From contig NC_009664.2 in NCBI RefSeq assembly GCF_000017305.1, positions 4,230,001-4,262,000 on the forward strand: 32,000 nucleotides of DNA, given 5' to 3'. Below are positions 10,085 through 29,452 of the stretch, one piece after another. Each line of letters starts with the position of its first letter. The stretch's first letter is position 1. Made by a program: the position numbers and the translations under genes. The stretch is from Kineococcus radiotolerans SRS30216 = ATCC BAA-149. GTDB taxonomy: Bacteria > Actinomycetota > Actinomycetes > Actinomycetales > Kineococcaceae. The notes under the pieces are model-generated. The model was not told the DNA's origin and made no database searches. It saw only the letters and a list, made by a program, of their open reading frames with translations.

Positions 10085-10088
10085 CCGG

Positions 10089-10120
10089 CCCTCCCGGGAG
10101 GGTCGAACCTCCCGGGAGGG
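10089..10120 (-). promoter_or_regulatory. perfect 13-bp stem-loop (two copies of palindrome CCTCCCGGGAGG) sequestering the Shine-Dalgarno of the GGDEF-EAL gene
   Basis: The mRNA sense reads CCCUCCCGGGAGG-UUCGAC-CCUCCCGGGAGGG-CCGG-GUG. The 3' arm contains GGGAGGG, 4 nt upstream of GTG 10084. Each half (10089-10102 and 10108-10119) is also self-complementary. Confidence 0.6.
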
Positions 10121-10357
10121 TCCGGCGGCGCGGACCGGGCGCGGAGGATGCACGTCCGTCCATCGGCGCCCGGAGCGTCCTGCTCAAGCGGTTCAGGAGT
10201 TGTTCACCCGCCGCCGGCCCCCCGCGGGCGTCACCCCGCCGGCCGCGTCGGGGGGGTGCGCACGGCCCGCCCCGGTGGCGGCGCCGGGGGCGTCGGGGAC
10301 GACACTGGGAACTCGCGGTGGCGCGGACGCCCACCGGTCGAGCGTGGAGGAGGTCCC

Positions 10358-13054: not shown

Positions 13055-14293
13055 GTGCGCCGCGAGACCTCGCCGGTGCGGCCCGGGTGGCGCGCCACCG
13101 TCGAGGGGCAGGGGCTGGCGTACGCCGTGGCGCGCGGCGGGGACGGCACCGAGCGCCTCTACTGGGACGAGTCGGCGGCCTACGTCGTCGACGTGGCCGA
13201 GGCCGACGAGCTGGAGCGCGTCACCGAGGAGCTGCACGGGATGGCGGTGACCGCGGCCCGCCGCGTCCTGGACGACGACCGGTTGTGGGCGAGCCTCGGT
13301 CTACCCGCTCACGCCCGTCCGACGTTGCGCCGTTCCCTGGACGCCGCTCCCGACGCCGGTCCCGCCGGGGGTTCGCTGTACGGCCGGCTGGACCTCGCCT
13401 TCGACGGCAGCGGCCCGCCGCTGCTGCTGGAGCACAACGCCGACACCCCCACCGCCCTGGTGGAGGCCTCGGTGGTGCAGTGGTACTGGCTGGAGGACCT
13501 GCACCCGGACTGCGACCAGGTGAACACGTTGCACGAGCGGCTGGTGCGGGCGTGGCAGCGGATGCTGCCCGGGCACGCGGGGGGTCTGGTCCACCTCGCG
13601 GCCGGGCAGACCGAACCGACCGAGGACTGGGTGACGGTGGCGTACCTGCGCGACACCGTCCGCGAGGCGGGGTTCACCGACGTCGGTCTGCGGGTGGAGG
13701 ACCTCGGCTGGTGGGAGGAGGGCGGGCGGTTCGTCGACCTGGACGGTCGGGTCGTCGACGTCTGCTACCGGCTGTACCCGTGGGAGTGGATGTTCGCCGA
13801 GCGCTTCGGTCCGCTGCTGGACCACCCGTCGGCGCGGGTGCGGTGGGTGGAGCCGCCGTGGAAGGCGCTGCTGGCGTCGAAGACGTTGCTGGTGGCGTTG
13901 TGGCAGGAGTTCGAGGGCCATCCGAACCTGCTGCCCGCGTGGCTGGACGAACCCCGCCCGGGAACCCCGGAGGCGCGGCGGGGGTACGTGTCGAAACCCG
14001 TCTACGGGTGGGAGGGGGCCGGCATCCGGATCACCGCGCCCGGGATCGACGTCACCACCGACCCCGCCCACACCGGCGGCCAGGCCCTGGTGCACCAGGC
14101 GTTCACCGAGCTGGCCGACTTCGACGGGAACCACCCCGTGATCGGCAGCTGGCTGGTGGCGGGGGAGGCCGCGGGACTGGGGTTCCGCGAGTCCACGTCG
14201 CTGGTCACCGACACCGCCGCCCGGTTCGTCCCCCACCGCCTCGACGCTCCCCGCTCCACCCCGGAGCAGGTCGCGTCCTGGCTGGCCGACTGA
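13055..14293 (+). CDS. glutathionylspermidine synthase-like ATP-grasp amide ligase (YjfC/YgiC family)
   Basis: Track ORF of 412 aa. It carries motifs typical of the GspS synthetase-domain family: YGRLDLAFDGSGPPLLLEHNADTPTALVEASVVQWYW, CYRLYPWEWM, WKALLASKTLLVALWQ, YVSKPVYGWEGAGI, VHQAF. Confidence 0.85.
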   Translation: MRRETSPVRPGWRATVEGQGLAYAVARGGDGTERLYWDESAAYVVDVAEADELERVTEELHGMAVTAARRVLDDDRLWASLGLPAHARPTLRRSLDAAPDAGPAGGSLYGRLDLAFDGSGPPLLLEHNADTPTALVEASVVQWYWLEDLHPDCDQVNTLHERLVRAWQRMLPGHAGGLVHLAAGQTEPTEDWVTVAYLRDTVREAGFTDVGLRVEDLGWWEEGGRFVDLDGRVVDVCYRLYPWEWMFAERFGPLLDHPSARVRWVEPPWKALLASKTLLVALWQEFEGHPNLLPAWLDEPRPGTPEARRGYVSKPVYGWEGAGIRITAPGIDVTTDPAHTGGQALVHQAFTELADFDGNHPVIGSWLVAGEAAGLGFRESTSLVTDTAARFVPHRLDAPRSTPEQVASWLAD

Positions 14294-17824: not shown

Positions 17825-18391
17825 TCACTGCGCGCGAGCTGCCCGCGCCCGTGCCTTGATCTCCAGGATGACGTCGGTCTTGGCGTCGGCGTAGGCGTTC
17901 GTGTCGTCCCACCGCTGGCTCAGCAGCGCCCTCTTGGTGCTCTCGTACAGGGCGCGGTCGTCCGCGTCGGCCCGCAGGTGGTCGCGCAGCAGGAGGTACT
18001 CCCCGACGGCGGGGTCGTCGCGCTCGTACAGGTGGACGTGGACGTCGCGCGCCGGTGTGCGCACGAGGCGGTGCCCCGGCTCGCGCACCCGCAGTTGGTA
18101 CCCGGCGGCCAGGAGCGCGTCGAGGTGGTCCTCCTCGGCGGTGATGTCGTCCACCGCGACCACGATGTCGACGATCGGCTTGGCGGCCAGCCCGGGCACG
18201 GAGGTCGAACCGATGTGCTCGATCTCGACGTCCACGGCGGCGAGGGCCTCCTCGATCCGCGCCCGGTGCCACCGGTAGGTGTCCGCCCACCGCTCGTCGT
18301 GGTCGTGCAGCTCCAGCTCGAGCGCCTCGGCACCCCCGACGAGTTCCACGGCGGTGATGTCGGCTCGGCGCGGTGTGCGGCTGTTCCTCAC
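17825..18391 (-). CDS. GrpB (UPF0157) family protein
   Basis: The sequence IEHIGSTSVPGLAAKPIVDIVVAV...HVHLYERDDPAVGEYLLLRDHLRADADDRALYESTKRAL is the GrpB signature. The start is uncertain: I chose GTG 18391, whereas the track ORF begins at 18490. Confidence 0.8.
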   Translation of the reverse strand: MRNSRTPRRADITAVELVGGAEALELELHDHDERWADTYRWHRARIEEALAAVDVEIEHIGSTSVPGLAAKPIVDIVVAVDDITAEEDHLDALLAAGYQLRVREPGHRLVRTPARDVHVHLYERDDPAVGEYLLLRDHLRADADDRALYESTKRALLSQRWDDTNAYADAKTDVILEIKARARAARAQ

Positions 18392-18695
18392 CCGGGCATT
18401 CTCGCCGACGCCGATCGACGTGGTGGCCGGGTGCCCCTGGGTTCCTGCGGCCTGCGGGAGGCTGGAGCGGCACCCGCTGGTGTCGTCCACCAGTGCGTCG
18501 AACGCGTCGGCACCGCCGGCCCCCCGGAAGGGCCCCGCACCCCGTCGACGCAGCCCGGGAGCGCTCTATCGCCGTCGTGCGGCTCCCGACCTCCGCGCGG
18601 CTCGCGAGGGCCCGGCCTCGACCGCGGGGACGGGAGTGTCCACTCTCACAGCGAGCGGGGTGGCAGGCCCACGGGCGTCGCGGGACCGTGAGCGG

Positions 18696-20144
18696 GTGAG
18701 CTCCCCGACGCCCCCCGACGTCCCGACCTCCCCGTCCCCGGCCCGTGGTGACGCGGTCGACTCCTACGACGTGGTGGTGGTCGGCGGTGGCCCGGCCGGG
18801 GTCTCGGCCGCGGTCCGCGCCGCCGAGCTCGGCGCCCGGACGGCCCTGCTGGAGGGGTCCCGCACCGGTGGGACCTGCGTGAACACCGGCTGCGTGCCGA
18901 CGCGGGTGCTGGCCAAGACGGCCCGGCTCGTCCGCGAGGTGCGCACGGCCGCGGAGTACGGGATCGCGGTGCCGCAGCAGAGCGTGGACTGGCCCGCGAC
19001 GGTCGCCCGCGTCCGCGCCACCGTGGAACGGGTGCAGGCCGCGAAGGCGGACCCGCAGCGGCTGGCCGACCTCGGCGTCGACCTGGTGCTGGAGGGCCGC
19101 GCGCGCTTCGTCGACCCGCACGTGCTGGAGCTCGCCGCGACCGGGCGGCGGGTGCGCGGCGAGAGCGTCGTGCTGTGCGTCGGTGGGCGCTCCCGGCGGC
19201 TGCCGCTGCCCGGGGCGGAACTCGCGACGTACCCCGAGACCGTGCTGGAGCTCCCGTCCCTGCCCCGGCGCCTCGCCGTCGTGGGCGCGGGCAACACCGG
19301 CTCGCAGCTCGTGACCGTCTTCCGCGCCCTGGGCAGCGAGGTGCAGCTGCTGGACCTCGCCCCGCGGGTCCTGCCGACGGCCGACGCCGACGTCTCGCAC
19401 GCCGTGCGGCGCGCGTTCGAGGAGCAGGGCGTCCGGGTGGCGACGGGCATCGACGCGGTGCACTCCCTGCGCCGGCGCGCCGACGGGGCGATCGACCTGG
19501 CGTGGTCGCAGGGCGGCACGCGCTCCGAGGAGGCGTTCGACGCGGTCGTGATGAGCGTCGGCTGGCCCGCGGCGCTGGACGGGTTGGGCCTGGAGGCCGC
19601 CGGGATCGAGGTCACCCGCTCCGCCGTCGCGGTCGACGAGCACCTGCGCACGTCCGTTCCCCACGTGTTCGCCGCGGGCGACGCGAACGGTCAGGCGATG
19701 CTCGTCCAGGCCGCCCACGCCGAGGCGGAGGCCGCCGCCACCAACGCCGTCCTGGGCGCGACCCGCCGCACCCCCCACCTGCTGCTGCCGTCGGGGGGTT
19801 TCACGGACCCGGACTACGCGGGGGTGGGGCTCACCGAGGACGAGGCACGGGCGCGGGACCCGCACTGCCTCGTGGTGACCGTGCCGTTCACGGCGATGGA
19901 GCGCGCCATCATCGACGACCGCACGCGGGGTTTCCTCAAGCTGATCGCCGACCGGCGTCGCGACGTCCTGCTGGGCGCCCACGCCGTGGGGGAGGAGGCC
20001 GTCGAGATCGTGCAGGCCGTGACGACGGCGATGGCCGCGGGCGTCGACGTCGCCACCCTGGCCCGCGTCGAGTTCGCCTACCCCACCTACAGCGCCGTCA
20101 TCGGCGAGGCCGCCCGCCGGCTGATGCGGGCCGCCGTCGCCTGA
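18696..20144 (+). CDS. FAD-dependent pyridine nucleotide-disulfide oxidoreductase (class I, redox-active CxxxxC)
   Basis: This is part of track ORF 18279..20144, with candidate start GTG 18696. The FAD fold is YDVVVVGGGPAGVSAA, the redox disulfide is GGTCVNTGCVPTRVL, the NAD fold is LAVVGAGNTGSQL, and FAAGDANG is present. The dimerisation domain ends EFAYPTYSAVIGEAA, i.e. YPT where Lpd/GR-type enzymes have HPTxxE. Confidence 0.85.
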   Translation: MSSPTPPDVPTSPSPARGDAVDSYDVVVVGGGPAGVSAAVRAAELGARTALLEGSRTGGTCVNTGCVPTRVLAKTARLVREVRTAAEYGIAVPQQSVDWPATVARVRATVERVQAAKADPQRLADLGVDLVLEGRARFVDPHVLELAATGRRVRGESVVLCVGGRSRRLPLPGAELATYPETVLELPSLPRRLAVVGAGNTGSQLVTVFRALGSEVQLLDLAPRVLPTADADVSHAVRRAFEEQGVRVATGIDAVHSLRRRADGAIDLAWSQGGTRSEEAFDAVVMSVGWPAALDGLGLEAAGIEVTRSAVAVDEHLRTSVPHVFAAGDANGQAMLVQAAHAEAEAAATNAVLGATRRTPHLLLPSGGFTDPDYAGVGLTEDEARARDPHCLVVTVPFTAMERAIIDDRTRGFLKLIADRRRDVLLGAHAVGEEAVEIVQAVTTAMAAGVDVATLARVEFAYPTYSAVIGEAARRLMRAAVA

Positions 20145-20249
20145 CACCGCTGCCGCGGTTCCTGCCACGTCAGCGGGACGAGCGCGGTGTCGCAGCGTGC
20201 CCCCGCGGGGGTGGTGAACCCGTCGGGGCCGGCGCCCGGGGCGGAGATG

Positions 20250-20279
20250 TTGACACGGGCGGTCCCCGTCGGGCACGGT
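20250..20279 (+). promoter_or_regulatory. candidate promoter for the riboswitch-led operon
   Basis: A perfect TTGACA (20250-20255) is rare in this GC context. An 18-nt spacer precedes CACGGT (20274-20279), which is a weak -10. The predicted TSS is about 20286, just 5' of the riboswitch. The call rests on sequence pattern only. Confidence 0.3.
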
Positions 20280-20288
20280 GAGCAACGC

Positions 20289-20385
20289 AACCATCAAGAG
20301 CGGCTGAGAGATCTGGCTCCGTGACGCCGCAGCAACCCTCCGCGTGAGCGGGTGTGGGTGCTTCCGCCAGAACCGATGGAGGAAC
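20289..20385 (+). promoter_or_regulatory. S-box riboswitch aptamer (SAM-I / SAM-IV clan)
   Basis: The sequence reads AACCAUC-AAGAG-CGGC-UGAGAGA-UCUGG-CUC-CGUGA-CGCCG-CAGCAACC-CUCCGC-GUGA-GCGGGUGUGGGU-GCUUCCGCCAG-AACC-GAUGG. Conserved S-box blocks AUCAAGAG, GAGRGA...YC...GAUGA-like k-turn halves, GCAACC and GGUGCU are all present. P2a is GCGGC/GCCGC. P2b is GAG/CUC, where the consensus has GGG/CCC, which is a compensatory change. P3 is ACCCUCCGC/GCGGG(UGU)GGGU. The loop CUGG can pair with CCAG (pseudoknot). P1 is CCAUC (20291-20295) / GAUGG (20375-20379). Confidence 0.65.
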
Positions 20386-20386
20386 A

Positions 20387-20473
20387 GTGCTCAACCGTTG
20401 TGATCGTGGTTTCTTCGCTTCCCGTCGTCGCCACGTCGACCACTGCCGTTGCGGCGCAACGGCCTGCCGGTGA
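20387..20473 (+). CDS. candidate 28-codon Cys-rich upstream ORF (leader peptide)
   Basis: GGAGGA (20378-20383), which overlaps the 3' strand of riboswitch P1, is followed by ACA and then GTG 20387. The peptide is MLNRCDRGFFASRRRHVDHCRCGATACR* with TGA at 20471-20473. It has 4 Cys in 28 aa, and 5 of its 8 Arg codons are CGT, which I did not see used elsewhere in the operon. There is no homology evidence. Confidence 0.25.
   Translation: MLNRCDRGFFASRRRHVDHCRCGATACR
20445..20463 (+). terminator. perfect 8-bp GC-rich hairpin inside the uORF 3' end (possible attenuator)
   Basis: Sequence is GCCGTTGC-ggc-GCAACGGC. The 5' arm covers the Cys-Arg-Cys codons TGC CGT TGC. There is no U-tract after it, so an intrinsic-terminator role is unproven. 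Confidence 0.3.
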
Positions 20474-20887
20474 CCCGCTGACGGCTCGCTGCCCCCGGGG
20501 GTAGGTCCGGCGGAGGAGTGGTGCACCGGGGTTCCCGCCCGGTCCTCACCGCTGCTCCCGCGTCGGGTCCCTCCCTGCGGACCCGCTGCGCCGCGAACCA
20601 GGACTCCGCCTCCGGCCGAGACGGTCCACGGCGCGACGCGCCGCGTCGACGCCGGACGGGAACGACCCGGGCCGACCCCCGGTGACGGCGGGCGCGTGAG
20701 CGCGCTGGCCGCCCGAGCACCGGGCACCCCTCCGGCTGCCTCCACCCGGCTCCCTCGGCGAACGCCGATCTCCGTCCTCCCCCGAGTTCCGAGGACCCGT
20801 CCCCCGGGGCGTCCCGACTCGACCCCGTTCTCCCGCACCCCGCTTCTCCACCCCAGAACCCCGGATCACCACAGTTGGAGCCTGCCC

Positions 20888-22540
20888 ATGCTCGTCCGTC
20901 GCCGCACCACGCTCGCCGCTGCAGCCGCCACCGCCCTCGCCGGCCTCGTCACCAGCTGCTCCTCCGCGGCGAGCGGCAACGACGCTCCGTCGGGTGAGCC
21001 CAAGACCGGGGGGACCCTCACCTACCTCGAACCGCAGACGTGGACGACGTTGTACCCGCCGGCGGCCGGGTTCTACCCCAACGGCGGCATCGTCAACAAC
21101 ATCACCGACCGGCTGCTGTGGCAGAACCCCGAGACCCTGGAACTCGAACCGTGGATCGCGACGGCGTTGCCGCAGGTGAACGCCGACGCCACCGAGTACA
21201 CCTTCACCCTGCGCGACGGCGTCACCTACTCTGACGGGACTCCGCTGGACGCCGCCAACGTGCTCGCCAACATCGACCTCTTCGGCAAGGGTGACCCCGA
21301 CCGTGCCCTGACGGTCTCGGAGGCCATCAACAACTACGACCGCGGCGAGGTCCTCGACGAGCGCACCGTCAAGTTCTACTTCACCGCCCCCGCCCCCGGC
21401 TTCGCCCAAGCGGTCTCCACCATCAACTCCGGTCTGCTGTCCACCGCCAGCCTGCAGCTGGACGGCGAGGGTTTCGGCCCCGGTCACGCCACGGCGGTCA
21501 TCGGGTCGGGGCCGTTCGTGGTCGACGACGAGGAGATCGGGACCCGGGTCTCGCTGGTGGCGCGCCAGGACTACGACTGGGCCCCGCCCTCGCGGACCCG
21601 CCAGGGCCGGCCCTTCCTCGACGGCATCGACGTCGTCGTCGCGGGGGAGGACAGCGTCCGTGTCGGGACGGTGGTCGCCGGTCAGGCCGACCTCGCCCGC
21701 CAGATCGAGGCGCCGGACGAGGGGCAGTTCGAGGCCGACGGCCTCGCTCTGCTCGCCGCGGCCACCAACGGTGTCAACAACGGTTTCAGCTTCCGCTTCC
21801 GCACCCCGCAGCTGCAGGAACTGCCCGTCCGTCAGGCGATCATCGCCGGCATCGACCGCCGCGCCATCCTCGACACGTTGTTCAGCGACAGCTACGTCCT
21901 GGCGACCGGGGCGCTGGCCACCACCGCCCTCGGCTACGTCGACACCTCCGCGAGCTACCGGCACGACCCCGCCGAGGCCGCGCGGCTGCTCGATCAGGCC
22001 GGCTGGCGGGTGGGCGGTGACGGGGTCCGCGAGAAGGACGGGGTGAAGCTGGCTCTGACCTTCAACGAGGCCCTGCCCCAACCCCGCTCGAAGGAGGTCG
22101 TCACCCTCGTGCAGGAGCAGCTGGCGAAGCTCGGCGTCCAGGTCGAGCTGCACCCCGGCGACCAGGCCGCGCAGACCGCCGCCGCCCTGGACCCGCAGAC
22201 CGTGCAGGTCTACCACTCCATGGTCGGGCGAGCCGACTTCGACGTCCTGAAGTCGCAGTACTTCTCCAAGAACCGCAACACGCTGCTGAACCTGGACAAG
22301 GGCGACGGCACCCTCGGCGACGCGGAACTGGACGCGCTGCTCAACGACATCGCCTCCAAGGCCACCACCGCCGAACGGCAGGCCGCCTCGCAGGCCGCGC
22401 AGCAGCGACTGGCCGAGCAGGCCTACGTCCTGCCGCTCTTCGAGGAACCGCAGGTCTTCGGCTTCCGGTCCGACGTGCAGGGTTTCACCACCGAGTCGGT
22501 GGGGCGGCCCTCGTTCCACGCGACGTGGCTGGACCGCTGA
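20888..22540 (+). CDS. ABC transporter substrate-binding lipoprotein, family 5 (peptide/nickel/opine type)
   Basis: ATG 20888 within track ORF 20696..22540, with GGAG 8 nt upstream. The signal peptide and lipobox are MLVRRRTTLAAAAATALAGLVTSC|SS. The SBP_bac_5 pattern is KTGGTLTYLEPQ...LLWQNPETLELEPWIATALPQVNADATEYTFTLRDGVTYSDGTPLDA. Confidence 0.9.
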   Translation: MLVRRRTTLAAAAATALAGLVTSCSSAASGNDAPSGEPKTGGTLTYLEPQTWTTLYPPAAGFYPNGGIVNNITDRLLWQNPETLELEPWIATALPQVNADATEYTFTLRDGVTYSDGTPLDAANVLANIDLFGKGDPDRALTVSEAINNYDRGEVLDERTVKFYFTAPAPGFAQAVSTINSGLLSTASLQLDGEGFGPGHATAVIGSGPFVVDDEEIGTRVSLVARQDYDWAPPSRTRQGRPFLDGIDVVVAGEDSVRVGTVVAGQADLARQIEAPDEGQFEADGLALLAAATNGVNNGFSFRFRTPQLQELPVRQAIIAGIDRRAILDTLFSDSYVLATGALATTALGYVDTSASYRHDPAEAARLLDQAGWRVGGDGVREKDGVKLALTFNEALPQPRSKEVVTLVQEQLAKLGVQVELHPGDQAAQTAAALDPQTVQVYHSMVGRADFDVLKSQYFSKNRNTLLNLDKGDGTLGDAELDALLNDIASKATTAERQAASQAAQQRLAEQAYVLPLFEEPQVFGFRSDVQGFTTESVGRPSFHATWLDR

Positions 22541-22545
22541 GCGCC

Positions 22546-23481
22546 GTGACCTACGTGGCCCGGCGCGCCGGGCAGGCCGTCGTCGTCCTGGTCCTGGCCT
22601 ACGCCCTGACCTTCGTCCTGCTGGCCGCCCTGCCCGGGGACGCGGTCCTGGCCCGGTACGGCAGTCCCGAGCTGGGGCTGTCCCCGGAGCAGTTGGCCGA
22701 CATCCGCGCCGCCTACGGGGCCGACCGGCCCCTGCCGGTGCGCTTCGCGGAGTCGGCCTGGGCGTTCCTGGGCGGGGACCTGGGGTACTCGGTGCAGAGC
22801 GGCGCCGCGGTCGCGACCCTGCTCGCCGCCGCCCTGCCCTCCACCCTCGTCCTGGCCGCGCTCGGACTGGCTCTCGCCCTGCTGCTCGCGGTGACGATCG
22901 CGGTGCTCGCCACGCACGGCCGGGGCCGGTGGCTGCGCAGGCTCTTCCAGAGCCTGCCCCCGCTGTTCGTGTCCCTGCCCGTCTTCTGGATCGGGATCCT
23001 GCTCATCCAGGTCCTCTCCTTCCGCCTGGGGCTGGTGCCCGTCATCGGTGCGGGGCCGGTGCAGGCGCTGATCCTGCCCGTGGCGACGATCGCGGTACCC
23101 ATCGCGGCGCCGCTGGCGCAGGTCCTGATGCGCAGCATCGACGACGTGGAGCAGATGCCGTTCGTCTCCGTGGTGCGCGCCCGCGGCGCCAGCCCGTCGT
23201 GGCTGCTGCGGCACGACGTCAGCCGCAACGCCGTCCTGCCGGCGCTGACGATGGCCGGTCTGCTGTTCGGGGAACTGGTCGGGGGCGCGGTGGTCACCGA
23301 GTCCGTCTTCGGGCGCGCCGGGATCGGGCAGCTCACCGCCCAGGCCGTCGCCAACCGCGACACCCCCGTGCTCCTGGCCGTGGTGGTCCTCTCCACGGTG
23401 GCCTACGTGGTCATCAACCTCCTCGTCGACCTGCTCTACCCCGTGCTGGACGCGCGCCTGCGCAGAGGAGGAGCCCGATGA
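22546..23481 (+). CDS. ABC transporter permease (DppB/OppB-like)
   Basis: GTG 22546 lies 5 nt after the SBP stop. It begins VTYVARRAGQAVVVLVLAYALTFVLL and has six TM segments and an EAA-like loop (VVRARGASPSWLLRHDVSRNAVLPALT). Confidence 0.85.
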   Translation: MTYVARRAGQAVVVLVLAYALTFVLLAALPGDAVLARYGSPELGLSPEQLADIRAAYGADRPLPVRFAESAWAFLGGDLGYSVQSGAAVATLLAAALPSTLVLAALGLALALLLAVTIAVLATHGRGRWLRRLFQSLPPLFVSLPVFWIGILLIQVLSFRLGLVPVIGAGPVQALILPVATIAVPIAAPLAQVLMRSIDDVEQMPFVSVVRARGASPSWLLRHDVSRNAVLPALTMAGLLFGELVGGAVVTESVFGRAGIGQLTAQAVANRDTPVLLAVVVLSTVAYVVINLLVDLLYPVLDARLRRGGAR

Positions 23482-24413
23482 GCGCTCACACCCGGGTGCC
23501 CGGTGCCCACCCCGGCAGCGACCCGACCCGGGTTCCCGCCGCGGGCCCGGGCGGCGGCGCCACCAGCGGCCCGGACGGCGGCCCGGACCGCGGCTCCGTC
23601 GGTTCCCCCCCGTTGCGGCGGGCACGGGCCCGACTGGGGATCGTCGTCCCGGCCCTGATCGTCCTGCTCGTGCTGCTGTGGGCGCTGCTGCCCGGGCTGT
23701 TCGCCCCCGGTAGCCCCACCGCCTCGGTCGCACCGTCGCTGCAGGCCCCCAGCGGGGAGCACTGGTTCGGCACCGACGCCACCGGGCGCGACGTGTTCAC
23801 CCGCGTCGTCCACGGCGCCTCGCACTCCATCCTCGGCGCCGTCGTCGCGGTGCTCGTCGGGTTCGTCGTCGGCACCCTGCTCGGGGTCCTGGCCGGATCG
23901 CTGGGCGGTCCCCTCGACGACGTCCTCATGCGCCTGGTCGACGTCCTGCTCGCCATCCCCGGGTTGCTGCTCTCCCTCAGCGTCGTCATCCTCCTCGGCT
24001 TCGGCACCACCAACGCCGCCATCGCCGTCGGCGTCACCTCCATCGCCGTCTTCGCCCGCCTCGCCCGCGCCGAGGTCGTGCGCGTGCGGGTCAGCGAGTA
24101 CGTCGAAGCCGCCTACGGCTCCGGGGGCACCTTCCTCGCCGTCCTGCGCCGCCACGTCCTGCCGAACTCCCTCACCCCCGTCGTGGCCCTGGCCGCGCTG
24201 CAGTTCGGTTCCGCGATCCTGCAGATCTCCACCCTCGGCTTCCTCGGCTACGGCGCTCCGCCGCCGACGCCGGAGTGGGGGCTGCTCATCGCCGAGGGAC
24301 GCAACTACGTCGCCACCGCCTGGTGGCTCACCGTCTTGCCCGGTGTCGTGGTCGTCGCCGTCGTCCTCGCCACCAACCGCCTCAGTCGATCGATCCGGAG
24401 CGTGCCGGCATGA
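23478..24413 (+). CDS. ABC transporter permease (DppC/OppC-like)
   Basis: The ATG at 23478 overlaps the previous stop as ATGA. The N-terminus is Pro/Gly-rich for about 55 aa. Then come HWFGTDATGRDVFTRVVHGA, TM segments and the EAA loop (EAAYGSGGTFLAVLRRHVLPN). Confidence 0.85.
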   Translation: MSAHTRVPGAHPGSDPTRVPAAGPGGGATSGPDGGPDRGSVGSPPLRRARARLGIVVPALIVLLVLLWALLPGLFAPGSPTASVAPSLQAPSGEHWFGTDATGRDVFTRVVHGASHSILGAVVAVLVGFVVGTLLGVLAGSLGGPLDDVLMRLVDVLLAIPGLLLSLSVVILLGFGTTNAAIAVGVTSIAVFARLARAEVVRVRVSEYVEAAYGSGGTFLAVLRRHVLPNSLTPVVALAALQFGSAILQISTLGFLGYGAPPPTPEWGLLIAEGRNYVATAWWLTVLPGVVVVAVVLATNRLSRSIRSVPA

Positions 24414-26137
24414 GCGCCCTGCTGAGCGTGCAGGACCTGCGCGTGGACTACACCACCTCGCGCGGCCCGGTCCGCGCCGTGGACGGGGTGTCCTTCACCG
24501 TCCACCCCGGGCAGACCACCGCTCTCGTCGGGGAATCCGGTTCGGGCAAGTCCAGCCTCGCCCAAGCCGTCATCGGTCTGCTCCCCGGCAACGGTTCCGT
24601 CACCGGTGGGCGCATCGACCTGCGCGGCAGCGACCTGCTGGGCCTGACCGAGCGCGAGTGGCGCGCCGTGCGGGGACGCCGCATCGGGCTCGTCCCGCAG
24701 GACCCGGGGAACTCCCTGAACCCCGTCGTCACCGTCGGGGCCAGCGTGGAGGCGAGCCTGCGCATCCACGGCTCGCGGGAGCGACGCGCGAACCGGGCCC
24801 GGGTGCTGGACCTGCTCGAACGCGTCGGCATCGACGACCCCGCCCGCCGGGCCCGGCAGTACCCGCACGAGTTGTCCGGGGGGATGCGTCAACGCGTCCT
24901 GATCGCCGCCGCCATCGCCCTGCAGCCCGAGCTGATCATCGCCGACGAGCCCACCAGCGCTCTCGACGTCACCGTCCAGGCCCGCGTCCTGGACCTGCTC
25001 GACGACCTGCGCGTCGGTACCGGCGCGGGGATGCTGCTCATCACCCACGACCTCGCCGTGGCCGCCGAACGCTCCGACGCGCTCGTCGTCCTGCGCCGGG
25101 GGACGGTCCAGGAGGCGGGCCCGACCGTGGAGGTGCTGGCCCACCCCCGAGCGGCCTACACCCGTGCCCTCCTCGCCGACGCGCCCTCGCTCGCCCGGGT
25201 CGTCGACCGGGCTCCCGTCCTGTCGGTGGCCGGTGCGGCCGGCCGTGCTGGTGACGGCGTTGCCGGCGGTGGGGCGGGGGGTCCGGCCGAGCGGCCCCTG
25301 GTGCAGGTCGAGGGCCTGCGGCAGGAGTTCCGCCGCCGCGGAGCCGGCCCCCTCCTCGCCGTCGACGGCGTCTCCTTCACCGTCGCCCGCGGCACCACGC
25401 ACGCCATCGTGGGGGAGTCCGGGTCGGGGAAGACCACCACCGGGCGGGCGCTGGCCGGTTTCGGCCGGCCCACCGCAGGCTCCGTCCGCGTCGGTGACAC
25501 CGACGTCACCGCTCTGGGGTCGCGCCCGACGTCGAGAGCGGCTCGCGCCTTCCGCCGCACGACGCAGCTGGTGCACCAGAACCCCTACGCCTCCCTGGAC
25601 CCGAGGCTCAGCGTCGGAGCGATCATCGCCGAGCCGCTGCTGAACTTCGGTCTCGGGAACGCCGACGAGCGCCGGGCGAAGGTCGCCCACCAGCTCGACG
25701 TCGTCGGGTTGCCCGCCGAGGTCGCGACCCGGCGAGCGCGGGAACTGTCGGGCGGGCAGCGCCAACGGGTGGCCATCGCCCGCGCCCTCGTCCTCGAACC
25801 CGACCTCGTCGTCTTCGACGAGGCGGTGTCCGCCCTCGACGTGAGCGTCCAGGCCCAGGTGCTGCGCCTGCTGGCCCGGCTGCAGGCCGACCTCGGCCTG
25901 ACCTACGTCTTCATCTCCCACGACCTCGCCGTCGTCCGCCAGATCAGCGACACCGTCTCGGTGCTGCACCGCGGCCGCCAGGTCGAGTCCGGGCGCGTGC
26001 AGGACGTCTTCGGCGATCCCCGGCAGGCGTACACGCGTGAGCTGCTCGCCGCCGTCCCGGGGACGGCGCGTCCCCGCCCCGGCCGCACCCCGGTCCCGCC
26101 AGCCCGCCACGACCCGCACGAGGAGGCGCGCTCGTGA
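24410..26137 (+). CDS. fused double ATP-binding-cassette ATPase (DppD-DppF type)
   Basis: ATGA overlap at 24410. There are two complete cassettes. Walker A is GESGSGKSS and GESGSGKTT. The signature is LSGGMRQR and LSGGQRQR. Walker B is LIIADEPTSALD and LVVFDEAVSALD. Confidence 0.9.
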   Translation: MSALLSVQDLRVDYTTSRGPVRAVDGVSFTVHPGQTTALVGESGSGKSSLAQAVIGLLPGNGSVTGGRIDLRGSDLLGLTEREWRAVRGRRIGLVPQDPGNSLNPVVTVGASVEASLRIHGSRERRANRARVLDLLERVGIDDPARRARQYPHELSGGMRQRVLIAAAIALQPELIIADEPTSALDVTVQARVLDLLDDLRVGTGAGMLLITHDLAVAAERSDALVVLRRGTVQEAGPTVEVLAHPRAAYTRALLADAPSLARVVDRAPVLSVAGAAGRAGDGVAGGGAGGPAERPLVQVEGLRQEFRRRGAGPLLAVDGVSFTVARGTTHAIVGESGSGKTTTGRALAGFGRPTAGSVRVGDTDVTALGSRPTSRAARAFRRTTQLVHQNPYASLDPRLSVGAIIAEPLLNFGLGNADERRAKVAHQLDVVGLPAEVATRRARELSGGQRQRVAIARALVLEPDLVVFDEAVSALDVSVQAQVLRLLARLQADLGLTYVFISHDLAVVRQISDTVSVLHRGRQVESGRVQDVFGDPRQAYTRELLAAVPGTARPRPGRTPVPPARHDPHEEARS

Positions 26138-27351
26138 CCACCCCGCCGGCGACCCCACCGACGTCCCCCGTCTCGACGACGTCCCCCGACCCGGCCACGG
26201 CGAGCGCGACGACGGGGAGCGGACCGCGGCTGGGGTTCTTCACCCGGCTCCTCGAGGACGCACCCGCCCCCGACCGGTACCGCTTCGCCCTGGAACAGGT
26301 CCAGCACGCCGAACGCGTCGGTTTCACCTCCGCCTGGGTCGCCCAGCACCACTTCGGGGAGCACGAGGGCGGTCTGCCCTCCCCGTTCGTCCTGCTCGCC
26401 GCGGCCGCGGAGCGCACCACGCGGATCGGCCTGGGCACCGGCGTCGTCACCCTGCCCATCGACGACCCCGTCCGGGCCGCCGAGGACGCCGCCGTCCTCG
26501 ACGCCCTCAGCGGCGGACGCGTCCAGCTCGGTGTCGCCTCCGGGGGGACCGACTCCTCCTTCGCGCCCTTCGCCCGCGAGGTCATCGACCGCCGCGAACT
26601 CTTCGAGGACCACCTCGCCGTCTTCCTCGAAACCCTGGAGGGACACGGCATCCGCGGCAGCGCCGCGCGCCTCTACCCCGCCGCGGGCACCCTCGCCGGA
26701 CGCGTGTGGCAGGGCACCTTCTCCGCCGCCGGGGGAGCGCGAGCCGGAGCTCGCGGTCACGGCGTGATGCTGTCGCGGACCCAGCCGCGCCCGGCGGCGA
26801 ACCCCCGCGCAGCCCTGCACGAGGTGCAGCTGCCCATCGTCGCGGCCTACCGCGACGCCCTGCCGGTTCGAGCGCCGTACCGGGTCCTCGCCTCACGCAC
26901 CGCCCTCGTCGTCGACGAGGACGACCGCGGCCGCGCTCTGGACCTCGCCCGGGACGGGCTGCGCCGTCTGGCGAGCACGTTCATCGGTGCCGACGCCGGC
27001 GACCTCGGCATCGACGACCTCATCGCCCTCACCGACACCCACGTCGGCACCCCCGAGGAGGTCACCGCCTCCCTGGCCGCCGACCACACCCTCCGCCTCG
27101 CCACGGACGTCACCTTCCAGGTCCACTCGATCGCCGCCACCCACGAACTCACCCTGCGCAGCCTCGAACTGCTCGCCACCGAGGTCGCCCCCCGGCTGGG
27201 GCTGGCCACCGGCGCAGCCGCTTCCACCGCCCTGCACCGGGCGCACCGGACCGACCGGGCGAACCGGGCCCGGGCGGGCCTGCACGACCACCTCGCCACC
27301 GGTGAGCACCGCGTCGACGCCCTCGCCCCCACCCCCGGAGGAAACGCATGA
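26134..27351 (+). CDS. LLM-class (luciferase-like) flavin-dependent monooxygenase
   Basis: GTGA overlap with the ATPase stop. After a 30-aa Pro/Thr-rich N-terminus comes LGFFTRLLE...ALEQVQHAERVGFTSAWVAQHHFGEHEGGLPSPFVLLAAAAERTTRIGLGTGVVTLP..DPVRAAEDAAVLDALSGGRVQLGV, which is typical of the LLM TIM-barrel. Confidence 0.85.
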   Translation: MTTPPATPPTSPVSTTSPDPATASATTGSGPRLGFFTRLLEDAPAPDRYRFALEQVQHAERVGFTSAWVAQHHFGEHEGGLPSPFVLLAAAAERTTRIGLGTGVVTLPIDDPVRAAEDAAVLDALSGGRVQLGVASGGTDSSFAPFAREVIDRRELFEDHLAVFLETLEGHGIRGSAARLYPAAGTLAGRVWQGTFSAAGGARAGARGHGVMLSRTQPRPAANPRAALHEVQLPIVAAYRDALPVRAPYRVLASRTALVVDEDDRGRALDLARDGLRRLASTFIGADAGDLGIDDLIALTDTHVGTPEEVTASLAADHTLRLATDVTFQVHSIAATHELTLRSLELLATEVAPRLGLATGAAASTALHRAHRTDRANRARAGLHDHLATGEHRVDALAPTPGGNA

Positions 27352-28766
27352 GCACCACCACGCAGACCACTCCCCGAACCACCCCCGATCCCGAGACCGA
27401 GCGCGCCCCCGCCGCCGAGGGGTTCTCCGGGGAACCCGCCGGGGAAGCTGTCGTCGACGTCATCGACCTGCTCGCCGGTACCACCCCCGACAGCCCGCTC
27501 TCCCGCACCCGCGCCCAACGGCCCCGGGCCCGCGAGAACGCCCAACGCAGCTTCGAGGCCCTCCTGGAACCCGCCGACCCCGGCTCGTTCAGCCACACCG
27601 AGCGCTACGCCGTCGCCACCTTCACCGCCCACCTGCACCGCTTCGAGCACGCCGCCCGCTTCTACGCCGACGTCCTCTCCGACACCGCTCCCCACCTCCT
27701 CGACCCGATCCACCACGCCGCCCGCGACGCCGCCTCCACCGGACCCGCCGGCACCTACCGGGAACCCGGCCTCAGCGCCGAGAGCGTCCCCACCACCGCC
27801 TGGACGCCGTCCCCGGCGCTCGCGGCGCAGCTGGGTCCGCGGCTGAGTGCGGCCCTCACCCACACCCACCTGCTGGTCTTCCGCCCGCGCGAAGCTGGCC
27901 CCGCGGCCCTGCGGGACCTGCTCCGCGCGGGGTGGAGCGCGGACCACGTGGTCAGCCTCTCCCAGCTCGTGGCCTTCCTGACCTTCCAGCTGCGCACCGC
28001 GTGGGGTCTCGCCGTCCTGCGTTCCCCCCACCACCACGAGGCGGGACGGGGGGTGAGCGGAACGACCCGCCACGAACCGACCGGATCGGGCGAGCCGGCG
28101 GGCCCGCAGCCCGGTGCGCACGACCACGGACCCCAGACGCACCTCGACCTCGTCACCGAGCACCCCGACCTGCACCGCCCCGAGAGGTTCACCCAGCAGA
28201 GCCTGGGGTGGGTGCCTTGGCTGGAACCCGTCGCCGAGGACGACCTCACCGACGCCCAACGGGAAGCGCTCGTCGAACCGGCCCGCGCGAAGATGCCCTA
28301 CTTCCGGCTGCTGGCCCGGGACCCCGACGCGCTGCGCGCCCGCACCCTCACCGACCTGGACATCTTCTTCAACACCACCGGCGGGATCGGCCGCGCCGAG
28401 CGCGAACTCGCCGCCGCAGCCACCTCCCGCCGCAACGGCTGCGTCTTCTGCGCCCACGTCCACGCCGCCGCCGCCACCCGCGAATCCGGACGCGGTCAGG
28501 ACGTGCAGCGCCTCCTCGACGACGGCCCGTCCGCCGACCTGGGCGACGAGCGGTGGAACGCGATCGTGGCCGCCTCCGTGCACCTGGCCGACACCCCCCT
28601 CGCCTTCAACGGCGACGACGTCGACCGGCTGCGCTCCGCGGGCCTGGACGACACCGCGATCGTCGACGTCGTCAACGGCGCGGCGTTCTTCAACTGGGCG
28701 AACCGGCTGATGCTCTCCCTCGGCGAACCCGAGGTACCCGCCTCCCGCCGGCGCGAACCGGCATGA
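27348..28766 (+). CDS. fused double CMD/AhpD-like protein (N-terminal CMD domain + C-terminal peroxidase-related CxxC domain)
   Basis: ATGA overlap at 27348. The N-terminal half reads ...SFSHTERYAVATFTAHLHRFEHAARFYADVL...LSQLVAFLTFQLR. A Gly/Pro/His-rich linker spans about aa 225-265. The C-terminal half reads FRLLARDPDALRARTLTDLDIFFNTTGGIGRAERELAAAATSRRNGCVFCAHVHAAAA...IVDVVNGAAFFNWANRLMLSLG, which is the carboxymuconolactone-decarboxylase/AhpD fold with CxxC. Confidence 0.75.
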   Translation: MSTTTQTTPRTTPDPETERAPAAEGFSGEPAGEAVVDVIDLLAGTTPDSPLSRTRAQRPRARENAQRSFEALLEPADPGSFSHTERYAVATFTAHLHRFEHAARFYADVLSDTAPHLLDPIHHAARDAASTGPAGTYREPGLSAESVPTTAWTPSPALAAQLGPRLSAALTHTHLLVFRPREAGPAALRDLLRAGWSADHVVSLSQLVAFLTFQLRTAWGLAVLRSPHHHEAGRGVSGTTRHEPTGSGEPAGPQPGAHDHGPQTHLDLVTEHPDLHRPERFTQQSLGWVPWLEPVAEDDLTDAQREALVEPARAKMPYFRLLARDPDALRARTLTDLDIFFNTTGGIGRAERELAAAATSRRNGCVFCAHVHAAAATRESGRGQDVQRLLDDGPSADLGDERWNAIVAASVHLADTPLAFNGDDVDRLRSAGLDDTAIVDVVNGAAFFNWANRLMLSLGEPEVPASRRREPA

Positions 28767-29452
28767 GCATCCCCACCCTGCTCGACCACGTCGTCATCGC
28801 CGGCCCCGACCTGGGCGAGCTCGTCGACTGGTTCGCCGCCGCCACCGGCGTCACCGCGACCCCCGGCGGGGTGCACCCCGGCACCGGCACCGCCAACGCC
28901 CTCGTCGCGTTGACCGTCGACGGTGAGCGTCGCCCGCACTACGTCGAGCTCATCGCCCCCGACCCCCGCGCCGCGGTGGAGGCGACCGGGTTCGGCATCC
29001 CCGGGCTGACCGGACCGCGCCTCGTCACCTACGCGATCCACCCCGCCGACCTCGACGCCGTCGTCGCCGGTTCCCGCGAGCGCGGCTACGACCCCGGCCC
29101 CGTCGAAACCCTCTCCCGCCGCACGCCGGACGGGACGCTGCTGCGGTGGCGGCTGACCCACTCCCGCCCGGACCGTCCCGACGTGCCCTTCCTCATCGAC
29201 TGGGGCGGCACCCCGCAACCGGGGTTCACCGTCGACGCGACCCTGGAACTGCTCGACCTCACCCACGTCGGTACCGGCGCCGCGACGAACCGGGCGCTGA
29301 CGGCGCTCGGGCTGCCTCCCGGCGCGGTGGCTGCGTCCGCCGCTCCGGCCGTCGACGCCGCCACCGGCGAGGCTCCCGGTGGTGCGGCGGCGGGCTACGC
29401 GCTGCGGGTGCGAGGCACCGACGGGTCGACCGTGGTCATCGGAGCGACCTGA
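28763..29452 (+). CDS. VOC (glyoxalase-like) family protein
   Basis: ATGA overlap at 28763, in the frame of track ORF 26987..29452. MSIPTLLDHVVIAGPDLGELVDWFAAATGVTATPGGVHPGTGTANALVAL...VELIAPDP...VPFLIDWG resembles glyoxalase-like domain proteins. Confidence 0.7.
   Translation: MSIPTLLDHVVIAGPDLGELVDWFAAATGVTATPGGVHPGTGTANALVALTVDGERRPHYVELIAPDPRAAVEATGFGIPGLTGPRLVTYAIHPADLDAVVAGSRERGYDPGPVETLSRRTPDGTLLRWRLTHSRPDRPDVPFLIDWGGTPQPGFTVDATLELLDLTHVGTGAATNRALTALGLPPGAVAASAAPAVDAATGEAPGGAAAGYALRVRGTDGSTVVIGAT

Follow-up and report, generated by a model that had tools for sequence, protein, structure and literature searches.

A SAM-I riboswitch and a conserved leader reading frame upstream of a candidate sulfur-scavenging operon in Kineococcus radiotolerans

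In Bacillus subtilis, the sulfur-amino-acid genes of the S-box regulon are repressed by S-adenosylmethionine (SAM), and in the S-alkylcysteine pathways of this organism (snaA/cmoO/cmoJ, yxeK), cysteine is released from S-alkylated precursors by monooxygenases of the luciferase-like (LLM) type, which work together with an ABC importer, an amidohydrolase and an acetyltransferase. In E. coli tnaC-tnaA and in the Salmonella mgtA leader, a short regulatory open reading frame (ORF) is followed by an untranslated spacer of about 200 nt or longer on which Rho acts, and then by the structural genes; the mgtA leader senses two signals by having both a Mg2+ riboswitch and a leader peptide, mgtL. Here we describe a locus of Kineococcus radiotolerans SRS30216 (ATCC BAA-149) in which a SAM-I riboswitch aptamer and a conserved 28-codon leader ORF stand upstream of a seven-gene operon encoding an ABC importer, an LLM, a fusion protein with CMD and AhpD-like halves and a VOC-superfamily protein. 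The locus lies within a 32,000-nt stretch of contig NC_009664.2 (forward-strand positions 4,230,001 to 4,262,000), the window to which all coordinates refer.

Riboswitches that work by way of an upstream ORF (uORF) have recently been described in mycobacteria. According to the published accounts, the Mbox of Mycobacterium tuberculosis pe20 exerts direct control over a conserved small uORF, in conjunction with Rho-dependent termination; at ppe2, the uORF under the B12 switch has to be translated for the downstream gene to be expressed, and the B12 switch of metE also acts through a uORF. For the Cys-rich leader ORF Ms5788A of Mycobacterium smegmatis, it is reported that removal of the start codon locks the downstream genes off and that pausing at the Cys codons turns them on.

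The operon itself represents the TIGR04027-TIGR04030 gene set, which is widespread, has so far been without an accepted function and is already catalogued as function-unknown. A literature search with the TIGR identifiers, the product names and Kineococcus in combination with SAM riboswitch found essentially nothing. The described neighbourhoods of this kind, in Klebsiella (KPN_01854-01858) and Allorhizobium vitis (Avi_7169/7170), comprise the same families in the same gene order as Kineococcus, along with two permeases and a fused ATPase. Kineococcus has CMD and AhpD in one protein, as do Enterobacterales; in alpha-proteobacteria the two are separate. The Kineococcus operon lacks an M20 amidohydrolase, and only Kineococcus has the riboswitch and the leader ORF.

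The SAM-I aptamer and the leader ORF

An Rfam scan of the whole window found the SAM-I (S-box) aptamer as its sole element (Table 1), in an alignment that spans model positions 1-108, and a relaxed scan (E<=1) of 20100-21000, the spacer included, gave no other credible match. The helices P1, P2 and P3 align, and the P2-loop CUGG and its downstream CCAG pseudoknot partner are both present. Homologous sites at two other Kineococcus loci, L001 and L003, score 48.8 and 53.0 bits, above the Rfam threshold. Judged by score and homologues, the aptamer is real, and the S-box that an earlier note on this DNA had claimed without coordinates is thereby confirmed. A lower-scoring match to another family of the SAM clan (CL00012) overlaps the same site. 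The minimum-energy structure from a free-energy fold of the leader was no better than those of shuffled sequences, and the aptamer was not recovered by it.

The position of the switch differs from what the earlier note had assumed, namely an S-box that directly leads the gene of the substrate-binding protein (SBP). The aptamer lies outside the span first reported (20888-29452) and ends 505 nt upstream of the SBP ATG, and the 3' strand of its P1 helix overlaps the Shine-Dalgarno (SD) sequence of a 28-codon ORF that had been missed. The Rfam alignment pairs G20378/G20379 of this SD with C20292/C20291, and G20382 with C20288. The SD/P1 region, CCGATGGAGGAAC, is invariant in four Kineococcus species, and the SD is separated from the start codon by 4 nt (AACA, or AACG in the three relatives). 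Since the S-box thus leads a small ORF, and since a 414-nt spacer follows before the operon, repression of the operon by SAM would be indirect.

Upstream of the aptamer, TTGACA and CAnnGT boxes are invariant in the leader alignment of the four species, with varying letters on their flanks. This putative promoter would place the transcription start 1-3 nt upstream of the aptamer. An E. coli-type consensus scan did not call it, and neither an intrinsic terminator nor a sigma-70 promoter consensus was found anywhere in 19900-21000.

Is the leader ORF a coding sequence? Its start position (GTG or TTG), its stop position and its length of 28 codons are identical in all four species. Across codons 9-28, the changes between K. 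radiotolerans and K. terrestris are distributed 3/2/10 over the three codon positions, with nine codons changed synonymously and four non-synonymously; by our own binomial estimate, at least 10 of the 15 changes at one codon position are expected with p ~0.009. A perfect 8-bp hairpin in the 3' half of the ORF exists in K. radiotolerans only and is destroyed in the other three species, with the peptide kept. The pattern of substitution indicates that the ORF is under coding constraint, and from the third-position bias and the persistence of the peptide without the hairpin we conclude that it is translated and that the C-terminal 20 residues of its product matter. Nine of the 27 codons end in T, and GC at third codon positions (GC3) is ~63%, compared with >90% in the neighbouring genes.

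The peptide provides a hint of kinship. The DK001/DK002 version matches the NCBIfam profile NF042934, 'putative leader peptide', with a sub-threshold 15.6 bits (cut-off 27). The consensus of this profile, recovered by probing it with invented test peptides, is approximately LLTRRRHVDLCRVASALC, and the same consensus also matches the Ms5788A and Ms4527A families of Cys-rich leaders. The Kineococcus peptides retain RRRHxDxCR and a Cys seven residues on, as in the consensus spacing, and this shared motif is suggestive of a relationship to the Cys-rich leader peptides of Actinobacteria. A collection of 15 billion proteins did not contain the peptide, a JGI metagenome scan gave no homologue (its lone match was spurious, of low GC and inside another gene), and no second copy was found in 91 sequences, comprising the window and the first 90 loci. 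Two further ideas about the ORF were rejected. Read-through into the SBP gene would be feasible in K. radiotolerans only, where the two are in frame with no stop in 20474-20887, the offset in DK002 being 304 nt; and a selenocysteine reading was discarded, the SECIS match being noise (17.7 bits vs 38).

For comparison, an SBP alignment against species-representative genomes yielded 80 loci, of which 79 lie in actinobacterial assemblies and one on a contig labelled Stenotrophomonas. Three of these belong to other Kineococcus species, and all three show the same switch and leader ORF. Identity between K. radiotolerans and these relatives amounts to 94-95% in the aptamer, 71-77% in the ORF, 34-53% in the spacer and 85-86% in the SBP. 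Homology detected by tblastx with the three loci starts at ~20261-20291 and ends at ~29278, within the VOC gene, whereas the flanks differ: the oxidoreductase that precedes the locus in K. radiotolerans is 9 kb away in K. terrestris and is unmatched in the 9.5 kb 5' of the DK001 aptamer. Because homology is confined to the block, the promoter, switch, leader ORF, spacer and seven genes have, on this comparison, been inherited together as one piece.

Table 1. Features of the locus (window coordinates; scores are followed by the curated or gathering cut-off)
Feature	Position	Strand	Basis or remark
Putative promoter	20250-20279	+	TTGACA 20250-20255, 18-nt spacer, CACGGT 20274-20279; inferred from conservation
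SAM-I (S-box) aptamer	20288-20382	+	Rfam RF00162, 56.1 bits vs gathering 44.4, E 1e-10
SD of leader ORF, GGAGGA	20378-20383	+	overlaps P1 3' strand (20375-20382)
Leader ORF, 28 codons, GTG start, TGA stop	20387-20473	+	encodes MLNRCDRGFFASRRRHVDHCRCGATACR; conserved frame
Untranslated spacer, C-rich/G-poor	20474-20887	+	candidate Rho-utilisation region
Lipoprotein SBP, family 5	20888-22540	+	TIGR04028 (SBP_KPN_01854 family), 864.4 bits vs 468.5, full length
ABC permease 1, Opp/Nik/Dpp type	22546-23481	+	
ABC permease 2	23478-24413	+	
Fused double ABC ATPase	24410-26137	+	two ABC_tran domains
LLM	26134-27351	+	TIGR04027 (LLM_KPN_01858 family), 508.6 bits vs 412.9, profile positions 1-326/326
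CMD/AhpD-like fusion protein	27348-28766	+	aa 37-224: TIGR04029 (CMD_Avi_7170), 258.8 bits vs 100.75; aa 277-461: TIGR04030 (perox_Avi_7169), 291.1 bits vs 233.15
VOC-superfamily protein, last gene of the unit	28763-29452	+	Pfam PF13468 Glyoxalase_3, 124 bits vs 25.1

The operon, its relatives and the case for sulfur

The seven plus-strand genes are joined by a 5-nt gap and then by ATGA, ATGA, GTGA, ATGA and ATGA overlaps, exactly the junctions that had been reported, and the assignments to TIGR04027-TIGR04030 proposed in the earlier note were borne out by an NCBIfam profile search in which all four lie above their curated cut-offs. The SBP, which matches a K. radiotolerans protein at 100% identity, begins with a lipoprotein signal peptide (...LVTSC). 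In the fusion protein, the CMD half is devoid of Cys, and the only two Cys residues sit in the AhpD-like half within GCVFCAHVH, a CxxCxxxH motif; this half also matches TIGR00778 (ahpD_dom) with 31.9 bits (cut-off 27.8). No NCBIfam model matches the VOC protein. The unit is well bounded, with a convergent TetR gene 3' of the VOC gene and, on the other side, a pyridine-nucleotide-disulfide oxidoreductase gene that stops 107 nt short of the putative promoter. The whole region from ~20250 to 29452, from the promoter through switch, leader ORF and spacer to the seven translationally coupled genes, is probably transcribed as one RNA.

How widespread is the system? Among 8000 candidates scored, an SBP search gave 3100 homologues at E<=1e-40, and matches to the LLM occur in 124 plasmid records. 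The hosts are plant- or soil-associated Actinomycetota and Proteobacteria, including Klebsiella, Pantoea, Erwinia and rhizobia. An LLM-CMD-AhpD trio without the transporter is found on plasmid 1 of Paracoccus denitrificans PD1222 (L081 11977-14200) and in Terrarubrum (L089 8977-11299), and from this gene content we take the trio to be the core of the system and the TIGR04028 transporter to be its usual partner. The VOC gene is a frequent extra, present in Pantoea, Rhizobium and most actinobacterial loci, and in Pantoea and Microbacterium it is adjoined by an M20 amidohydrolase gene.

Among eight sampled proteobacterial plasmid loci with a full operon, three have taurine, sulfonate or S-alkylcysteine-type neighbours. 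On A. vitis pAtS4e, the operon is followed by 2-oxoglutarate oxygenase, LLM, tauA-ABC and acyl-CoA-dehydrogenase-family genes; the R. tumorigenes operon and an aliphatic-sulfonate ABC transporter are divergently oriented; and the P. dispersa operon has as its divergent neighbour a set comprising GNAT, two LLMs, an amidohydrolase and an SBP, a set which we take to resemble the S-alkylcysteine pathway of B. subtilis. In a published Klebsiella pneumoniae proteome, KPN_01858 rose together with TauC. Given the SAM switch, these neighbours and the co-induction with TauC, a sulfur role of the operon is plausible; the proposal of a sulfur and methionine role, made in the earlier note, has been strengthened, if only circumstantially. 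The combination of a family-5 SBP with M20 amidohydrolase neighbours points to a peptide-like substrate, and we infer that the operon imports and oxidatively processes a peptide-like or N-acylated organosulfur compound.

In other Actinomycetota, the loci show neither a conserved neighbouring regulator nor a conserved neighbouring sulfur gene; their neighbours are mixed (amylase-like, Mdh, RadA, LacI, GNAT, aldo-keto reductase), and the short regions upstream of the SBP gene carry recurrent motifs of their own. Microbacterium-type loci (L006-L036, L043, L049, L052-L054) have two to four TTACG-N4-GTGAC repeats (also ATGACG-N4-GTGAC) with ~10-bp phasing, at ~40-150 nt 5' of the SBP start (around locus position 9850-9950). 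About 28 nt downstream of the repeats stands a GTGGTGGGCT/GTGATGGACT box, which is conserved, as is the 5' untranslated region; the repeats probably mark an activator-dependent promoter that binds a protein regulator. A Leucobacter module, ~60-200 nt 5' of the SBP start, reads TCCGTTATACGC ... CATGAAGTTCTGTGAC ... TTATG-N-CA-N3-ATAACAATAGC, and Brachybacterium loci have a common upstream TATGAAC-N4-CATTAG (the two modules were read in L037-L039, L045, L047, L050, L057, L061, L065 and L068). To judge from these motifs, the operon appears to have lineage-specific operators.

The gene content varies as well. Many Leucobacter loci (L038, L039, L045, L048, L051, L094, L095) contain the SBP, two permeases, the ATPase and the CMD/AhpD fusion, and lack the LLM and VOC genes. 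These LLM-less loci adjoin a divergent gene for a 720-790 aa FAD/NAD(P)-binding (NAD_binding_9) protein and an SDR gene, whose products may represent an alternative oxidase. In Microlunatus (L004 18701-19948), a second LLM gene lies on the same strand ~850 nt 3' of the VOC gene, after a small opposite-strand ORF. The Stenotrophomonas-labelled locus (L036) is a 4050-bp contig filed under Stenotrophomonas maltophilia P13, with an actinobacterial-type TIGR04028 SBP that is 72-73% identical to that of Kineococcus and an upstream motif like that of the Microbacterium-type loci; contamination of that assembly is the probable explanation.

The window as a whole is of high GC (~74%) and holds further genes. 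The oxidoreductase ORF upstream of the promoter (18279-20144, plus strand) reaches ~160 aa upstream of its conserved domain, a glutathionylspermidine-synthase-like protein is encoded at 13055-14293 (plus strand), and a NIT-HAMP-GGDEF-EAL signalling protein at 7355-10183 (minus strand).

From the leader to the operon: a possible mechanism and its rivals

How might a SAM switch that leads a small ORF govern an operon several hundred nucleotides downstream? The most likely reading, to which we give about even odds, is that the locus is a SAM-gated, leader-peptide-dependent operon for sulfur scavenging. At high SAM, P1 would close and hide the SD, the leader ORF would not be translated, and the untranslated C-rich leader RNA would be terminated by Rho or otherwise locked off, such that the operon is silent. 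At low SAM, ribosomes would translate the leader ORF, and their behaviour on the conserved C-terminal RRRH(I/V)DxCR...C, be it a pause at Cys codons when Cys-tRNA is scarce or an arrest by the nascent peptide, would let transcription or translation enter the operon, by masking of Rho or by an RNA rearrangement. The leader would in this way integrate the status of methionine (as SAM) and possibly that of cysteine. The family-5 lipoprotein SBP, the two permeases and the fused ATPase would then import a peptide-like or N-acylated organosulfur compound, which the FMNH2-dependent LLM would oxidise; the CxxC AhpD-like reductase with its Cys-free CMD partner and the VOC enzyme would handle oxidised-sulfur or carbonyl products, the CxxC domain reducing an oxidised sulfur intermediate, and the outcome would be sulfur usable for Cys and Met.

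A sharper version can be formulated, which we put forward tentatively and regard as distinctly the less likely of the two. Here, the SAM-I switch and a Cys-type leader peptide would form a two-input gate, in which SAM sets the translation of the leader, pausing or arrest at the tail sets the Rho stop, and the operon is on only when Met (SAM) and Cys are both short, with organosulfur scavenging as the function of the TIGR04027-04030 system as a whole. If true, no SAM riboswitch before this one would have been shown to work by way of a leader peptide, and the gate would assign an orphan transporter/LLM/CMD/AhpD system to organosulfur scavenging.

The spacer is the natural candidate for the site of such a stop. 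Its length is 414 nt in K. radiotolerans and 154-265 nt in the relatives, and in all four species it contains 46-52% C and 27-34% G, with a best 78-nt window in which (C-G)/78 is 0.32-0.37; across 20707-20887 of K. radiotolerans, C/G is 1.9-2.8. An excess of C over G is the composition expected of Rho-utilisation sites, and the spacer is therefore a candidate for Rho action.

Several observations weigh against the scavenging reading, and we gather them here and, where they favour a particular rival, in the paragraphs that follow. The P4 helix of the aptamer is a stub, with 1 nt in place of 17 consensus positions. The Cys residues of the leader peptide (positions 5, 20, 22 and 27) are nowhere adjacent, runs of Cys codons are missing from the ORF, and just two Cys are kept in K. 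terrestris; neither the K. radiotolerans nor the K. terrestris peptide matches the NCBIfam leader-peptide profiles NF042934, NF042933 or NF042936. On the side of the enzymes, no SsuD-type model occurs among the 25 best of 27 NCBIfam matches to the LLM, and the match to NtaA/DmoA (TIGR03860) reaches just 24.9 bits (cut-off 279.7). By its profile matches, the LLM forms a clade of its own with no specific relationship to the SsuD, SfnG or NtaA families, and the comparison with C-S-cleaving enzymes such as SsuD and SfnG, with which the sulfur hypothesis had started, remains an analogy. Roughly half of the proteobacterial contexts are uninformative.

The distribution of the switch belongs to the same list. 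We searched for the S-box at other operon loci with regular expressions, with Rfam gathering scans of 37 other loci and with a covariance model of our own over 1.78 Mb (96 sources); outside Kineococcus, all three were negative. The covariance model found it in all four Kineococcus leaders and in none of 92 other operon loci, which comprise 76 genome loci and five metagenome contigs of the actinobacterial type, the Stenotrophomonas-labelled contig and ten proteobacterial plasmid loci. Metagenomic SBP homologues at 74-78% identity also lack it. The comparison that the earlier note had suggested, of how often the cluster is preceded by a SAM switch, therefore restricts the S-box to a single genus and does not make it a general property of the operon family: on this survey, switch and leader ORF are a genus-specific addition to a mobile, self-contained operon.

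This restriction bears on the first rival, which we consider unlikely. On that view, the switch acts on the small ORF alone, which would encode an independent small protein or belong to a short RNA that the riboswitch terminates; the seven genes would be transcribed from a promoter within the spacer, and switch and operon would be neighbours simply by inheritance within one genus. The long sequence between ORF stop and SBP start, unconserved in all four species, could hold such a promoter; all other taxa express the operon without an S-box, from short upstream regions with other conserved motifs; and in whole-leader folds of the four species, the leader ORF does not pair in any conserved way with the SBP ribosome-binding site. 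A duplex of the Ms5788A style, with the Cys region of the ORF paired to that site, was rejected on these folds. Against a separate promoter speaks that switch, ORF and operon are contiguous and on the same strand in four species despite a changing upstream flank, and that the spacer is free of promoter and terminator consensus, its composition fitting Rho-dependent attenuation as in the M. tuberculosis precedent. A stand-alone protein is not what the peptide looks like either, as it resembles cis-acting leader peptides and not any protein family, and is absent from the protein and metagenome collections described above.

Equally improbable in our estimation is a second rival, in which the system has no connection to sulfur: it would take up and oxidise a sulfur-free compound of peptide-like, opine-like or N-methylated nature as a source of carbon or nitrogen, or else a fragment of a xenobiotic polymer, and the S-box would reflect the methyl or one-carbon economy. 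The Paracoccus PD1222 trio adjoins genes for sarcosine oxidase, folD, purU, a Rieske oxygenase and GlxA regulators, a context of methylamine and one-carbon metabolism. The operon contexts of Klebsiella, Erwinia, Chimaeribacter and S. americanum contain no sulfur genes, the neighbours at the Klebsiella type locus being unrelated to sulfur. M20 and amidase neighbours would suit the catabolism of peptides or amides, and the nearest solved relatives of the SBP, all of them distant, bind nickel, agropinic acid or glutathione; for SBP, AhpD half and VOC protein alike, the search of solved structures found just distant or uncharacterised relatives. What such a rival leaves unexplained is the SAM riboswitch with its Cys-type leader, a specific sulfur-amino-acid signal, as well as the three independent proteobacterial loci with taurine, sulfonate or S-alkylcysteine-type genes; and the operon possesses a dedicated importer for small molecules.

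The polymer variant of this rival derives from PCX02514 of Klebsiella sp. PCX (PDB 8K74), to which the Kineococcus LLM aligns over residues 31-355 with 323 bits (E 3e-95), and on which one paper exists, although the earlier note knew of no biochemical characterisation. This paper claims in vitro poly(acrylic acid) monooxygenase activity, with a kcat of 0.002 per s, dependent on NADPH and independent of flavin, and its sections on bioinformatics and biochemistry do not discuss the operon context of transporter, CMD and AhpD. Four of the five pocket residues proposed there are kept in the Kineococcus LLM (R38, R153, S214 and R215), His253 being the exception. Activity so slow, NADPH-dependent and flavin-independent is atypical for the LLM fold; the physiological relevance of poly(acrylic acid) oxidation is doubtful, and we do not regard it as the native role.

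Finally, that the 28-codon ORF is not translated at all and owes its conservation to RNA structure of the riboswitch expression platform is very unlikely: the ORF directly abuts the aptamer, has a low GC3 for this genome and contains the K. radiotolerans hairpin, but the amino acids outlive that hairpin in the other three species, changes concentrate at third positions with frame, start and stop preserved, and a canonical SD stands immediately ahead of the conserved GTG/TTG start.

Comparison with known systems

A SAM-sensing switch is the first regulatory clue that this widespread orphan system scavenges sulfur for methionine and cysteine. SAM riboswitches are among the most specific regulatory pointers, and the candidate substrates are narrowed by it to compounds that feed the methionine and cysteine pools. 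The Kineococcus LLM has no specific match to the enzymes of the S-alkylcysteine pathways of B. subtilis, and those pathways contain nothing equivalent to the CMD/AhpD pair or the VOC protein.

With respect to the leader, the likeness to tnaC-tnaA and mgtA is one of architecture only, as ligands, peptides and organisms differ. The Ms5788A/Ms4527A attenuators (NF042933, NF042936, NF042934) resemble the Kineococcus arrangement in that a short ORF precedes a presumptive sulfur operon on the same strand. In contrast to these, the Kineococcus ORF is not leaderless, because an SD and a 100-nt riboswitch 5' leader precede it, and it has neither a run of consecutive Cys codons nor a conserved duplex to the downstream SD.

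Like the Mbox and B12 switches of M. tuberculosis, the Kineococcus aptamer has an SD at its 3' end, and the first cistron is a conserved uORF. Kineococcus differs from them in its ligand, SAM, and in a uORF that resembles the Cys-type leader peptides, and a part for Rho at the Kineococcus locus would be by analogy with them. Termination-reinitiation as at ppe2 is unlikely here, because the uORF stop is 154-414 nt away from the operon. As a composite of a SAM switch and a Cys-type leader, the locus adds a further form to the riboswitch-uORF systems that mycobacteria have lately revealed: it would extend the actinobacterial pattern of riboswitches acting via uORFs to the SAM class and join it to the family of Cys leader peptides, and it illustrates compactly how a natural mRNA might combine two sulfur-amino-acid signals.

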